Source: an uncultured delta proteobacterium
GTDB taxonomy: Bacteria > Desulfobacterota > Binatia > UBA9968
DNA: 64,000 nt
Assembly: GCA_963755715.1 (NCBI GenBank)
Contig: CAVWLW010000050.1
Span: forward strand, 53,189 to 117,188
Direction: 5' to 3'
Shown piece by piece: positions 1,176-14,947 of this stretch (its first letter is position 1; every line of letters begins with the position of its first letter). Made by a program: the position numbers and the translations under genes. Under the pieces are notes generated by a model. The model was not told the DNA's origin and made no database searches. It was given only the letters and a program-made list of their open reading frames with translations.

Positions 1176-4100
1176 ATGGAAAGAAAGCGGGTGTTGGGGA
1201 GCGTTAGGCAAGCCGAAGGCCGCTTTGTCAAATTTGCCCGAGACGACGTCGAAACGTCCGTCCCTGAACGCTTCGAACGACAGGCAGCACTCTATCCCGA
1301 TCATATTGCGGTCAAGACGAGATTTCAGCACGTCACTTATTCGGAATTCAATAAGTCAGCCAATCAGATCGCCCGGGCCGTTCGGCAACACTCTTCTAAT
1401 GTTCAACCGATCGCGCTTCTACTGGATCACGACCTGCCCGCAATTGTCGCAATCTTTGCCGTGTTGAAAGCGGCAAAATGTTTCGTTCCGCTCGACCCAG
1501 CGCTTCCTCTTTCAAGACTTGAGTTCATGTTGGTCGACTCGGGTGCTCAACTCGTTGTCACCAACAATCAGCGTTTGGCTCTCGCGCACAAAGTGTTCGA
1601 TCGCTCCCGCGTCATCAACCTTGATCAGATCGACGAGTCTTTGGAAACGGACAATCTGGAGCTACGGATACCGGCTGAAGCCATGAGTTGTATTCTGTAC
1701 ACTTCCGGCACCACTGGCAGGCCAAAAGGGGTGGTGCATACCCACCGCAATGAACTTCACAACGTCATGCACCACACCAATAGTCTTAGTCTTACCAGCG
1801 ATGATCACTTTACTCTTTTTGGCTCTTATAGCACTGGGCAGGGCATGCAAGACTTCTACTGTGCATTGCTGAACGGCGCGACGCTTCATCCCTGGAATCT
1901 GAAATTGGACGGCCTCGGCGGTATAGCCGATTGGTTACATCGAGATAGGATTACTGTGTACCACTCGGCGGCGACGGTGTTTCGTTATTTCGTGAAAAAC
2001 CTAAGCGATGGGGAGGAATTTCCGGATCTGCGCATCATACGGCTGGGAAGCGAACAAGTCTCTTGGAAGGATCTGGAATCGTACAAACGGCACTTCTCAA
2101 AACATTCTATTTTCGTCAACGCGTTGTCCAGTTCAGAGACCAAGACGATTCGCCAATATATCGCCAACAAGGAAACTCAAATCACGGGGATCGTACCGAT
2201 CGGATACCCCGTGCCGGACATGGAAATTCTCATGTTGGACGAATATGGCAATGAGCTCGGCCCGGGTCAGATCGGAGAAATAGCAGTTCGAAGTCAGTTT
2301 CTTTCCCCTGGCTACTGGCGAAGTGTGGAACTTACTAACGCTGAGTTTCGTGCCGAGCCGGCCGGCTCCGGTAGCCGCATCTTTCGCACCGGTGAATGGG
2401 GACTTTTGTCTGCCGACGGATGCCTCGAGCACCTTGGACGTCGGGATGCTCAGATAAAGATTCGCGGTTATCGAGTTGAAACAAAGGAAATAGAGCTCGC
2501 GCTGCTACGACATCCTGTGGTGGATCAAGTGCTCGTTCTCTGCCGAGACAACCTAAGAGGAGACAAATACTTAGCCGCCTATATTGTTCTGGAGGGGTCG
2601 TCAGCACCCGGTGTGACTGAGCTGCGGAATTTTCTCAAAGAAAAGCTTCCAGATTACATGATTCCTTCTGCATTTATCTTCTTGGAGTCGCTACCCCTTA
2701 CGCCAAACGGAAAGGTCGATCGCAGTGCCCTGCCTGAGGCTACGAACTCCCGACCGGTCCTCGATGTTCCGTTTGTCCCTCCAACAGGACAGATCGAAGA
2801 AGTGTTGACAAGCATATGGGCTCTAATTCTCGGAATACGCGAAATAGGGGTACATGATAATCACTTCGATCTTGGCGGCAATTCACTAACCGCAATGCAA
2901 GTTGTCGCTCGAGTCGAGAAAATATTCGGCGTGCGGACACCACTAAGTGGTTTTTTCGAATCGCCGACCATTGCAAGTCTAAGTCGAATTATTTCCATAG
3001 CGAATGACTCTGCAGAGCGTGGGACTGATGTCCCATTGGAACGCGTCGCGCGCGATCAGAACCTTCCACTTTCTTTTGCCCAACAGCGATTATGGTTTTT
3101 GGATCAATGGGAGCCTGGAAACGCGTCCTACAATATCTGTAGAGCCCACTATCTGAGAGAAACGCTAAATGTTGGGGTCTTCGAAGACAGTGTGAACAGT
3201 ATCGTCCAGCGTCATGAGATCTTACGCACGTCTTTCCCTGCGTCAGACGGTCAACCGACGCAGGTTATCGCTCCCCTTTTGAGTCTGAGATTAGAGGTAA
3301 TCGACATGCAGCAATTACCTAAATCTGAGCGATACGAACAAAGTATACAAATAGCAAAAGACCAAGCGCGACGTCCCTTTGATTTGGAGGGAGGCCCGCT
3401 CCTGAGGGCTATGCTGATCCGCCTGGATGAACAAGAGTGGCTAATTGTCTTTACCGTGCATCAAATAGTATGCGATGGCTGGTCAATGCAAATTTTTTAT
3501 CGCGAGTTGTGGACTTCTTACAAAGCATTTTCCGCTGGGCAACGGCCAGCGCTTCCCATCCTTCCTTTTCAATATTCCGACTTCGCCGTCTGGCAGCGAA
3601 AATGGCTGCAAGACGCGCCCCTCGTGTCACGGCTTACCTATTGGAAGCATCGAATTGGCAGTGAAGTGCCGCTTCTCAATCTACCGACTGACCGGTCCAG
3701 ACCAAAACTACGGAACTTCCGCGGCGCAAGGCAGTCTGTGATGTTGGCAGGAGCGCTTTCAGAGGCGCTGAAGGACTTGAGTCGTCGTGCTGGCTTCACT
3801 CTATTCATTACGCTGATGGCGGCGTTTAAGACCTTGCTTTTCCGTTACACGGGTCAAGTGGATTTAGTCGTCGGTTTTCCGATAGCAAACCGAAACTGGG
3901 GCGCGACCGAAGACCTGATAGGATTTTTTGTAAATACCCTGGTGCTGCGTACAGATCTTTCCGACGATCCAACTTTTAGCGAACTGCTGATTCGAGTAAG
4001 ACATTTTTGCTGGGAAGCTTATACCTACCAGGACCTGCCGTTTGAAAGACTGGTAGAAGAGTTACACCCGAAGAGGGAGTTAGGCCGCAACCCATTATTC

Positions 4101-13100: not shown

Positions 13101-14947
13101 ACCTGGACATGAGGAGTCCAGCCAGCGGTTGATCGCCTATATCGTCGCTTCTGTGCAGAATCCCTCCCTCGATGAAGTAAAAAACTTTCTAATGAAAAGG
13201 CTTCCTGATACATGGTGCTCATCCGCGTTCATAGTGCTGGACCATCTACCACTCACGCCGAACGGGAAAGTCAACCGGCAGGCGCTCCCCCCCGCCGAAA
13301 GGTGCCAAACTATCGCTTGATCAGAGTTTGATCGAGCCGCGCACGGAAACTGAGGCATTGGTGGCATAAGTTGGCGAGATGTTTTAAAATAGAGCGCCTT
13401 GGGATCCAAGACAATTTCTTCGAGCTGGGAAGGTAATCCTTGCTCGGTACCCAGGTCGTTGCTCGATCGTCGGATGTCGTTTTGCAGGCAGATTCCGCTC
13501 CGCACTCTTTTCGAGGCTCCGACTGTCGCTCAGTTCGCGCTCAAGATCGAAAGAATTATACAGGGACGTCGATCCCGTGAGTTGCCGCCGGTTGTGCCAC
13601 TACACGCGACAAGTGTTTGCCCGCATCACTGGCCCAGCAGCAATTCTGGTTCGTGGACGAATTACTTCCTTGTACTGAGCTCTTGAATATACCTTATGCC
13701 TATCGGATCATAGGTTCGCTGGACGCCACGGCGCTATACAAGAGTTTACAAGAAGTCGTGAACCGTCATGAAGCACTGCGCACTATTTTCACTGAAGTCG
13801 ATGGCCGCCTCGTACAGATCATCGATAGAAAGCCGCGGGTCAAATTGCGGGTTGTAGATTTGTCTTATCTGCCCGCGAGCAGACGAGAACAGCCAGCGAC
13901 GCAATTGTCTCGGCGAGATGCGCGTGGCCCGTTCAATTTGGAAAAAGGTCCCCTGCTTCGAACCAAACTAATTCGTCTGACAGAGAATGAGCACATCTTG
14001 CTGGTTACCATGCACCATATTATCGGGGACCAATGGTCGATAGGGGTATTTCGACGAGATTTGGCGGCGCTCTATAACGCTTTTGTGCGCGGAAGTCCAT
14101 CTCCGCTTCCCGAGTTGTCGATTCAATTTGCAGATTTCGTTTGCTGGCAACAGCAGGTATTGCAATGCGGATTATTAAAAACCCAAATTGCTTACTGGCA
14201 AAGGCGGCTCGCCAGTACCGTGTCCATGCTTTCGATTTCAAAAGAATCACAGAAAAAAAAGACACGTAGATTTTCAGACTTCTGCTGACTATTTGAATTC
14301 GACCCAGCGTTCTTTACGCAGATTAACGCTCTTGCTCGTCAGGAGAGCTCGACTCCTTTTATGGTCTTGCTAACGGCCATAAACATCGTGCTTCATCATT
14401 TAACTGGTCAACGGCGCATACGGATCGGAACCTTAGCGGCCAACCGCAATCTAAAGGGAACTGAAAACTTGATCGGCTACTTCGTTAATACCGTAATCGT
14501 GCAGACTCAGGTGCCGCCGCGGTGGACATTCCGCCAACTTCTAAAGTGCGTCCAGAAGAATGCACTGGGAGCTTTCGCGCACCAAGACATACCCATCGAA
14601 GAACTGGAATCTGCGTTGGAAACGAAACGAAAAGCGGCCCGACAACCTTTGTTTCAGGTGCTGTTTAATTACCGGAATCTAGCTTTTCAATCTCGGATGA
14701 TCTGGGCCTAATCTTTGCTCCGTGGGATCGGAAAAACCGCCTCCCACACGCCGGGATAACTATGACAACGTTGGATCTGATAATTGAGCTACGCGAAACG
14801 TCAACAAAGTTGACGGGAGCCGTAACTTATAAGACAAAAGTTTTTAGTGAGCAGCTCATCACCCAAATAATAGATAATTTTCACATAGTACTCGCACGGG
14901 CCAATCTTCACTCAGATTGCCGAGAGGCGAATATCTTCGATAGATGA
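10130..14947 (+). pseudogene. Non-ribosomal peptide synthetase 2 (N-terminal TubC-like docking domain, then C-A-T-C with a terminal C domain), frameshifted and without a canonical start
   Basis: Directly after the NRPS1 stop, in the same frame: FITYLQDFGVRLSAEGERLHVSAPKGKLPADLRAQIAERKADILTLL, a TubC-type N-terminal docking-domain pattern. This is followed by a C domain (LSFAQERLWFLEQLEP, HHSASDAWS), an A domain ([43 protein letters not shown]), a PCP (FFELG..) and a final C domain (HHIIGDQWS) that ends at a TGA at 14945-14947. Frameshifts fall near 10740, 11070, 11330, 11600-11900, 12270, 12650-12700, 13130, 13320-13620 and 14290-14760. The first in-frame ATG/GTG/TTG after the upstream stop is the TTG at 10388, inside the C domain. 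Confidence 0.75.

Follow-up and report, generated by a model that had tools for sequence, protein, structure and literature searches.

The frameshifts that interrupt a four-module NRPS locus in a Binatia-like bacterium are probably not the marks of a dying cluster but consensus errors, made where a metagenome assembly crosses sequence that varies between strains, as far as comparison among assemblies of the same locus can tell. The window, by which we mean the whole 64,000-nucleotide stretch of contig CAVWLW010000050.1 that was analyzed, was compared with seven sibling contigs from seven other samples, which have the same regulator-NRPS-hydrolase synteny and very different damage. The sibling samples belong to one accession series (ERZ25039520, 545, 554, 555, 556, 585, and 599), and their contigs bear Flye-style names; all eight assemblies apparently come from one project, with samples that are independent and methods that are not. 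About 30 frameshifts and a 547-nt duplication in the third adenylation domain (A3) are most likely absent from the DNA of the organism itself.

Organization of the gene pair and the start of gene 2

Core motifs in the frame-corrected translation of window positions 1176 to 14947 give the order A-T-C-A-T-C-A-T, followed by a TubC-type dock and C-A-T-C. Together with the Pfam domain profiles, they bear out the domain order given in a preliminary description of this DNA. The genes and their neighbors are as follows.

97 to 1170, + strand: upstream AAA_16/TPR_MalT-type regulator, C-terminal part (Pfam TPR_12, TPR_MalT, and related families)
1176 to 10133, + strand: NRPS gene 1, A1-T1-C1-A2-T2-C2-A3-T3, ending ...ESDKDQREEFDL, with TAA at 10131 to 10133
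1698, 4970, and 8186, + strand: A3-type motifs of gene 1; 2706, 5972, and 9784: A10 motifs
6128 and 9929, + strand: T motifs of gene 1; 3072 and 6726: C motifs
10116 to 10121, + strand: Shine-Dalgarno (SD)-like hexamer GAGGAG, with the proposed gene 2 start ATA at 10130 to 10132 overlapping the gene 1 TAA
10130 to 14947, + strand: NRPS gene 2, TubC_N dock, C3, A4, T4, and terminal C, frame repeatedly broken
10361/10750 and 13626/14013, + strand: C motifs of gene 2; 11802 to 13278: span of A4
16153 to 16988, + strand: alpha/beta-hydrolase split over two frames (Abhydrolase_1 positions 5 to 72, then 74 to 104, in overlapping ORFs)

Pfam matches in the frame-corrected translation comprise four Condensation, four PP-binding, and four AMP-binding_C domains (families PF00668, PF00550, and PF00501/PF13193) and five AMP-binding stretches, the fifth being the duplicated A3 segment. 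By regular-expression search of the same translation, the A3 (TSGSTGxPKG) and A10 (NGKxDR) motifs are present in all four modules, the T motif reads GGHS in T2 and T3 and GGNS in T1 and T4, and HHxxxD occurs in C2 and in both C domains of gene 2 (HHSASDA and HHIIGDQ), with HQIVCDG in C1. TubC_N (PF18563) has a single match (56.5 bits against a cut-off of 26, E value of 2.9e-15) directly after the gene 1 stop, which places a docking domain of the TubC type at the N terminus of the gene 2 product, just ahead of its C domain. The gene pair has the colinear A, T, and C domains of a modular type I NRPS. The continuous frames of full-length synthetases are missing from the sequence as given, which has at least 31 frame breaks, and we judge this to be a fault of the sequence and not of the gene.

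The locus is an authentic NRPS of two genes and four modules, from a "Candidatus Binatia"-like bacterium. In the proposed scheme, the tripeptidyl thioester of the gene 1 product (A-T-C-A-T-C-A-T) would be passed to gene 2 via a docking pair formed by the C-terminal tail and TubC_N, gene 2 (C-A-T-C) would add a fourth residue, and the product would probably be released via the terminal condensation domain. The split NRPS of the tubulysin TubB/TubC type likewise has colinear A-T-C modules with canonical core motifs, a first protein whose C terminus is a short acidic tail, and a second that carries a PF18563 dock at its N terminus. Unlike that system, the locus described here has four modules that end in a C domain rather than a thioesterase, its second gene appears to start at ATA, and its host is an uncultured Binatia-like bacterium.

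The preliminary description had remarked that gene 2 has no ATG, GTG, or TTG ahead of its docking domain. This is correct: an in-frame TAA lies at 10103 to 10105, and the first canonical start is the TTG at 10388. The position homologous to the ATA/TAA overlap reads ATGA in sibling L021, which carries a divergent allele, and ATAG in L001. From these alleles, the absence of a start codon is best read as a conserved ATA/TAA overlap and not as decay, and gene 2 is probably translated from the ATA codon that overlaps the gene 1 stop. A programmed frameshift or read-through fusing the two genes was considered and rejected, because the docking-domain pair implies two proteins and the divergent allele has a plain ATGA overlap.

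The regulator gene begins before the window, and the ORF given for it here runs from an internal TTG; the syntenic counterparts of the gene are 866 amino acids long in L016 and 1144 in L021. The Abhydrolase_1 matches of the hydrolase are weak and below the Pfam cut-off, and the ORF at 17133 to 17795 may be its C-terminal part. A hydrolase also lies downstream of the NRPS genes in L016, L020, and L021. In the window, a sigma-54 activator remnant (18748 to 19423) downstream of the NRPS genes is also frame-broken.

Frame breaks and the strain-variable island

Frame changes were counted with a Viterbi trace in which stops were forbidden and the shift penalty was raised. The trace placed 34 shifts, all between 4584 and 14694 and none in 1176 to 4583; two correspond to the natural frame change between genes 1 and 2 and another two bypass a single in-frame TGA, so that about 31 frame breaks remain. 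Applied to gene 2 of sibling L016, which is intact over 4.5 kb, the trace yields no shifts and so does not over-call, and the earlier figure of at least 15 frame changes was therefore correct yet an underestimate. Gene 1 is open only from 1176 to 4631 (an intact ORF of 1151 amino acids), its frame is repeatedly broken from 4584, and the density of breaks after 4583 is about 1 per 300 nt, with the greatest density in 4500 to 5700. The in-frame TGA at 14286 to 14288 (+ strand), aligned to Arg in the two closest homologues, is the one clear nonsense codon that was detected. As in a pseudogene, the frame is disrupted relative to intact homologues. The distribution of this damage follows the relationship of the sequence to its siblings, which divides the region into two parts.

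1 to 4250, + strand: backbone common to the siblings, ungapped and free of frameshifts, with 99.4 to 100% identity to L001 and L016
4250 to 19400, no strand assigned: strain-variable island, 65 to 98% identical to siblings or without a relative

All of the NRPS frame breaks and the broken downstream genes fall inside the island; the preliminary description was right to treat the damage as local and not uniform. Mismatches rise to 10 to 26% after about 4250, the first frameshift follows at about 4582 to 4584, and identity to L016 is back to 97% from about 19500. The breaks start in the middle of a gene, exactly where the sequence ceases to be shared with the siblings and identity to them drops from between 99.4 and 100% to between 65 and 95%. 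The same pattern is seen in L001, which is intact while it is 97 to 100% identical to L016 and broken just after the two diverge. The number of breaks per 500 nt is anticorrelated with the best identity to any sibling (rho of −0.53, P value of 0.004). An assembly artifact would produce such a combination of clean flanks common to the strains and errors limited to the sequence in which the strains differ. Within the island, positions 4250 to 5700 are only 70 to 82% identical to anything, and the closest full-length match is the module 4 A domain of L001; a mis-join of the module 2 and module 4 A domains and a natural A-domain swap are equally likely origins of this segment.

When the siblings were traced by the same method, about 4 true breaks were found in L016 and 15 to 42 in the others, at positions which almost all differ between contigs. 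Gene 2 of L016 is an intact C-A-T-C ORF of 1517 amino acids. L016 and L020 share 99 to 100% identity across most of gene 2 and 96% across 11.9 kb, yet 78 one-nucleotide gaps, mostly insertions in L020, separate them. The window and L020 represent different haplotypes, but at the same two columns (about 10680 and 10702) each has an additional A when compared with its nearest relatives, apparently through an error that depends on sequence context. JGI homologues (66 to 81% identity) are open across nearly the whole of their short contigs (661 amino acids in 2036 nt and 980 amino acids in 3115 nt), and ENA homologues on contigs of 11 to 100 kb are fragments of 380 to 700 amino acids. A 211-amino-acid fragment called from the present contig is already in NCBI and ENA. 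Indels could be polarized against siblings where relatives are close; no intact near-identical cluster was found in scans of genome and metagenome contigs (with the 572-amino-acid ORF as query, only relatives at 21 to 47% identity were found), and no GTDB species representative carries the cluster.

Indel spectrum, coding constraint, and the A3 duplication

Over 6.3 kb of 6- to 8-way alignment of the eight contigs, 134 indels were private to one contig and 26 were shared. Private indels were overwhelmingly of a single nucleotide (121 of 134; 90%), and insertions outnumbered deletions (101 versus 33). In real bacterial pseudogenes, the insertion-to-deletion ratio is near 0.76 and deletions average about 19 nt (PMC6054270), and the excess of insertions over this ratio is highly significant (binomial P value of 3e-14). 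The spectrum is thus not the natural one, in which deletions equal or exceed insertions and sizes are broad; indels that are private to each assembly of the same locus are instead as expected of an artifact. No lesion of the window is shared with any of the seven siblings. About 15 breaks, in 4250 to 5680 and 13290 to 19000, are not polarizable because these stretches have no close relative. Most of the window-private insertions lie outside long homopolymers and so do not represent classic homopolymer error.

Coding capacity is recovered when the private insertions are removed. Dropping five private 1-nt insertions from the window leaves 1121 codons (5681 to 9048) without a stop, and after removal of private insertions the first 644 codons of gene 2 are open in all eight contigs. 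Differences between the window and L017 are distributed over codon positions 1, 2, and 3 as 63:34:148. Substitutions private to the window number 13:6:23 and 11:7:20, together 24:13:43, which departs from an even spread (hand-computed chi-square of about 17); the even spread of relaxed selection was not found for these substitutions. The codon-position bias is purifying selection that reaches the tip of the window's lineage.

The A3 domain contains an imperfect direct duplication of 547 nt, the two copies of which are 87% identical.

8557 to 9104, + strand: copy 1, A5-A8 motif region, closest to the L016/L019 haplotype (93%)
9105 to 9652, + strand: copy 2, closest to the L017 haplotype (92.6%)

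All five siblings tested (L001 and L016 to L019) lack the duplication. Run lengths of L017-like and L019-like alleles are mostly uninformative, as expected for a star-like tree, with the exception of three long allele blocks which define a haplotype switch at about 8630 and a restart at 9105. This is the form that a false duplication built from two haplotypes takes, and from the allele pattern the "duplication" is most likely two haplotypes joined one after the other. Such a structure could also arise, in principle, from real heteroallelic recombination.

Consensus error or a dying cluster

We hypothesize that the errors arose in the consensus of a long-read metagenome assembly, a platform that we guess from the names of the sibling contigs only. 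The NRPS island differs strongly between coexisting strains; the flanks would receive a deep, clean consensus because they are nearly identical between those strains. The island may have been polished from few or mixed reads, which would leave random 1-nt insertions and one tandem junction of two haplotypes. Artifacts of long-read metagenomes at low depth or high microdiversity share with this locus private, ORF-truncating 1-nt indels in strain-differing sequence, two haplotypes in tandem, and clean flanks, and are unlike it in that the excess here consists of insertions at ordinary sequence rather than homopolymer deletions. A near-finished consensus needs about 40× R10.4 coverage, and microdiversity degrades metagenome-assembled genomes (MAGs) (PMC9262707).

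The preliminary description had favored a recently inactivated cluster and had offered locally poor assembly with collapsed strain variants as the alternative; in the comparison with siblings, the alternative fits much better. Genuine recent pseudogenization, in which the NRPS was inactivated and, within an otherwise intact genome, gathered frameshifts, the A3 duplication, and a nonsense codon, is unlikely. It would explain why breaks are limited to the cluster and its neighbors with the other 45 kb clean, the TGA at 14286 in place of a conserved Arg may be a true nonsense mutation, a real A3 duplication would inactivate the gene, and the truncated sigma-54 activator beside the island suggests a real rearrangement nearby. 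Decaying clusters and pseudogenes of reductive genomes also combine many frame disruptions in a large dispensable cluster with intact housekeeping genes. However, their indels are deletion biased and broad in size (PMC6054270), the opposite of the 1-nt, insertion-biased indels seen here, which are shared with none of the siblings, so that seven assemblies would each need 4 to 42 independent lesions. The first 3.4 kb of gene 1 has no breaks where about 11 would be expected at the observed density, damage beginning only at the point of sibling divergence. The codon-position bias is not relaxed; window-private substitutions are still concentrated at third positions, and there would therefore be almost no neutral substitution beside some 30 indels. 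The two copies of the A3 duplication come from different haplotypes, and the ATA/TAA start overlap is conserved.

A wider version of the idea that the lesions are real, or that a decisive subset of them is (the heteroallelic 547-nt A3 duplication and the TGA at 14286), has a similarly small chance of being right. In a population of Binatia strains, purifying selection would maintain a hypervariable NRPS island in which modules and A domains are swapped, and single strains would repeatedly and very recently lose it; separately, gene 2 would have an AUA start coupled to the upstream stop. If true, the locus would show one species in the act of gaining, diversifying, and losing a cluster.

More doubtful still is a mixed case, in which the cluster of this strain is truly dead: consensus errors would account for the majority of the breaks, and a small number of lesions would be genuine, the candidates being the TGA at 14286, the A3 duplication, or the breaks that lie in regions without relatives. 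The TGA is a substitution and not an indel, and breaks in 4250 to 5680 and 13290 to 14947 cannot be polarized; but a low-depth consensus makes substitution errors too, the A3 duplication bears the signature of two haplotypes, and nothing sets the candidate lesions apart from those that are demonstrably private. That errors are uniformly frequent along the contig and the NRPS conspicuous only through gene length is scarcely credible. In its favor is an IS110 transposase (48439 to 49627), the only one of the suspicious ORF pairs checked elsewhere that looks split. Against it, positions 1176 to 4583 are unbroken, large genes elsewhere are open, as had been said earlier (among them ORFs of 741, 870, 820, and 598 amino acids), and about 145 breaks would be expected between 19.4 and 64 kb at the NRPS rate.

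If the sequence were accepted as it stands, the locus would pass for a dead biosynthetic cluster, and gene calling would yield about 30 NRPS fragments. For the mining of long-read MAGs, clusters of frameshifts in strain-variable islands should be presumed consensus errors until reads show otherwise, and a cheap, read-free test is to compare sibling assemblies for private and shared indels, indel spectrum, and codon-position bias. With consensus error as the preferred explanation, the comparative evidence indicates that this Binatia-like bacterium has a live, strain-variable four-module NRPS, the sequence of which needs haplotype-aware re-polishing.

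Domain order and reading frames of the NRPS

The NRPS begins with an intact reading frame of 1151 aa (ORF 1176-4631), 3' of which the plus strand breaks up into dozens of ORFs of 60 to 570 aa each. Pfam searches of the frame-corrected translation recovered four Condensation, four PP-binding, and four AMP-binding_C domains, together with five AMP-binding stretches and one TubC_N docking domain (56.5 bits against a cutoff of 26). Because the Pfam domains and core motifs follow one another as A-T-C-A-T-C-A-T, stop, dock-C-A-T-C, the domain architecture given in the preliminary description is correct. 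The NRPS of this uncultured, Binatia-like bacterium is genuine and of an ordinary type: its four modules are carried on two docking-linked proteins, the second of which ends in a C domain. The proteins of the window belong to a 201,206-nt contig deposited at NCBI and ENA, and the members of their clusters that have names are Candidatus Binatia. Both gene 2 C domains deviate from HHxxxDG (HHSASDA at 10750-10770 and HHIIGDQ at 14013-14033), and the HHIIGDQWS of the terminal C domain is also found in its two closest homologues, P0331 and P0332.

Frame breaks were counted by scoring tblastn matches to ~440 homologues, followed by a Viterbi trace in which frame changes were allowed and read-through of stops was forbidden. 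This trace introduced 34 shifts, all of them between 4584 and 14694, and left 1176-4583 unbroken. Two of these are the natural frame change from gene 1 to gene 2, and two others are steps around a single in-frame TGA (14286-14288), which is aligned to a conserved Arg and is not polarizable. With these four set aside, the true breaks number ~31, or ~1 per 300 nt; the frame changes proposed earlier thus exist, but the figure of 15 was an underestimate. A looser trace gave 52 shifts and was demonstrably overcalled; the stricter trace was used instead, and when applied to a sibling contig whose 4.5-kb gene 2 is intact, it placed no shifts there.

A 97%-identical homologue of the intact ORF (P0001) is encoded on ENA contig L001, and a search with the 572-aa ORF at 7202-8917 recovered many ENA homologues of 80 to 94% identity, all of them short fragments on long contigs. 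The sibling set comprised seven contigs (L001 and L016 to L021) from seven samples, with neighboring accession numbers and Flye-style names, and the NRPS is fragmented in all seven. The complete order of regulator, NRPS, and hydrolase is present in L016 and L021, and in L016 these are followed, as in the window, by the OsmC and Mo-hydroxylase genes. No close relative was found among the GTDB representatives and JGI contigs scanned. JGI homologues of 66 to 81% identity are open over nearly the entire length of short contigs (661 aa on 2036 nt, 846 aa on 2643 nt, and 980 aa on 3115 nt); the ENA contig_N relatives, at 80 to 94% identity, are fragments of 380 to 700 aa on contigs of 11 to 100 kb.

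Private indels and coding constraint

Window positions 5700-9040 were aligned with five siblings and 9110-12040 with all seven. Indel events private to one contig numbered 134, versus 26 common to at least two, and every contig carries a private set (14 in the window, 5 in L016, and 33 in L001). Most private indels are 1 nt long (121 of 134, with a further 11 of 2 nt), and insertions outnumber deletions by 101 to 33. In a published survey of 857 indels from genuine bacterial pseudogenes, insertions numbered 300 and deletions 396, sizes followed a power law, and deletions averaged ~19 nt (PMC6054270); relative to that ratio, the insertion excess has a p value of 3e-14. The private indel spectrum is unnatural and departs from that of real bacterial pseudogenes. 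By the same trace, true breaks per assembly range from about 4 (L016) to 42 (L020) across eight assemblies. These two contigs are 99 to 100% identical over most of gene 2, which is a 1517-aa ORF in L016 and is riddled with single-base insertions in L020. An extra A occurs at two alignment columns (near window positions 10680 and 10702) in both the window and L020, each compared with its own nearest relatives, although the two are different haplotypes that are about 77% identical there; this recurrence looks like what a context-specific error would do. GATC and CAGATG sequences are found near these columns.

Dropping columns present in a minority of the aligned sequences removes the window's five private insertions over 5681-9048 and leaves 1121 codons with no stops; the other contigs retain 0 or 1 stop over the same stretch. 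With this correction, gene 2 stays open over its first 644 codons in every one of the eight contigs. Differences between the window and its siblings fall at codon positions 1:2:3 in the proportions 63:34:148 (L017), 78:41:175 (L016), and 96:52:200 (L019), and window-private substitutions do so at 13:6:23 and 11:7:20. The underlying NRPS gene is thus under selection. Approximately 9 private substitutions would be evenly spread (neutral or erroneous), an estimate that assumes that the selected class has the pairwise proportions, and the window carries 14 private frame-shifting indels over the same stretch. In natural decay, substitutions are expected to far outnumber indels.

The "advanced state of decay" most likely stems from the assembly. 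Recent inactivation was not borne out by comparison with the closest homologous clusters, those of the seven siblings, as the lesions are mostly private, 1 nt long, and biased toward insertion, coding constraint is kept, and gene 2 is intact in L016. A genuine recent inactivation of the NRPS is improbable, since nearly all of the sampled strains would have had to acquire lesions in parallel, each set private, 1 nt long, and biased toward insertion, with no relaxation of coding constraint. A mixed case, in which most breaks are consensus errors and a few lesions are real, is less probable still.

The start codon of gene 2

Gene 1 ends in ...ESDKDQREEFDL, with its TAA at 10131-10133. Gene 2 indeed has no ATG, GTG, or TTG between the TAA at 10103 and its docking domain, as had been claimed, and L016, L017, L019, and L020 likewise have no canonical start ahead of the docking domain. 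In L021, which carries a divergent allele, the homologous site (about 12560-12575) reads CTATGA, in which the ATG overlaps the TGA stop and is followed by MSIAEFVSHL...; the site reads TTATAA in the window clade and GTATAG in L001 (about 11650). The codon homologous to the L021 ATG is ATA (10130-10132), which overlaps the gene 1 stop (ATAA) and lies 8 nt 3' of a GAGGAG hexamer (10116-10121). One G-to-A substitution is enough to turn ATGA into ATAA, with the gene 1 stop retained. Because these four siblings likewise lack a canonical start and the ATA is homologous to the ATG of L021, the missing canonical start is conserved, in a gene that is under selection, and is not a sign of decay. We infer that AUA would initiate translation of gene 2, and the arrangement resembles stop-start coupling at a conserved noncanonical start codon within an NRPS operon.

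A strain-variable island

Window positions 1-4250 are 99.4 to 100% identical to L001 and L016, with no gaps. Past ~4250, mismatches per 250 nt climb to 24 and then to 64, the alignment's five gaps are confined to 4535-4658, and the first NRPS frame break is at 4582. From this break to ~19400 the window is 65 to 98% identical to varying siblings, blockwise, or has no relative, and identity to L016 is back to 97% at 19500. Since the flanks are nearly identical and identity between them is blockwise, the NRPS lies inside an island that varies strongly among strains. Within the window's NRPS, the number of breaks per 500 nt falls as identity to the best-matching sibling rises (rho, −0.53; p, 0.004), and L001 is open for 1605 aa while 97 to 100% identical to L016 and fragments just past the divergence. 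The third A domain of gene 1 (A3) contains a repeat.

8557-9104 and 9105-9652, plus strand: direct duplication in A3, copies 87% identical, period 547-548 nt

The duplication is absent from all five siblings tested, in each of which both copies align to one and the same segment. Copy 1 most resembles L016 and L019 (93 to 93.6%), and copy 2 most resembles L017 (92.6%), with no more than 82 to 85% identity to L016 and L019; the allele blocks of the window turn from L017-like to L019-like at ~8630 and restart as L017-like at 9105. Because the copies match different haplotypes and the allele blocks switch and restart, the duplication probably marks an assembly junction at which two haplotypes were joined in tandem.

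The damage is local, as first described, and large genes elsewhere in the window are uninterrupted (open ORFs of 741, 870, 820, and 598 aa). The damaged zone does extend beyond the NRPS to a hydrolase and a sigma-54 activator, and among the suspicious adjacent ORF pairs checked, an IS110 transposase alone is split outside it.

16153-17795, plus strand: alpha/beta-hydrolase downstream of the NRPS, frame split at about 16425-16461
18748-19423, minus strand: sigma-54-dependent activator remnant, an AAA-lid piece and an HTH_8 piece only, in two frames, adjoining OsmC
48439-49143 and 49112-49627, plus strand: split IS110-family transposase, overlapping ORFs with DEDD_Tnp_IS110 and then Transposase_20

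The ORF at 17133-17795 may be the C-terminal part of the split hydrolase, which is found at the homologous place in siblings and is split there too in L016 and L021. An intact 522-aa GAF-Sigma54_activat-HTH_8 gene lies downstream of the NRPS in L021, and the remnant in the window may lie at the right-hand boundary of the variable island. Window positions 14000-18500 have a G+C content of 44 to 47%, versus ~54% for the contig, and the one relative recovered for them, at 72% identity, is a terminal C domain from a 3.2-kb ENA contig.

A strain-specific island would receive a thin or mixed consensus, while flanks common to all strains would be polished cleanly. In published Nanopore R10.4 metagenomes, a platform that the window contig may share, modal read accuracy is reported to be ~99%, near-finished consensus needs ~40x coverage, and microdiversity strongly affects MAG quality (PMC9262707).

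The second A domain of the window (4249-5700) is 70% identical over 1.48 kb to the module-4 A domain of L001 and only 64 to 65% identical to the colinear A2 of L001 or L016. The strains seem to differ by A-domain swaps and, through them, may make different peptides.
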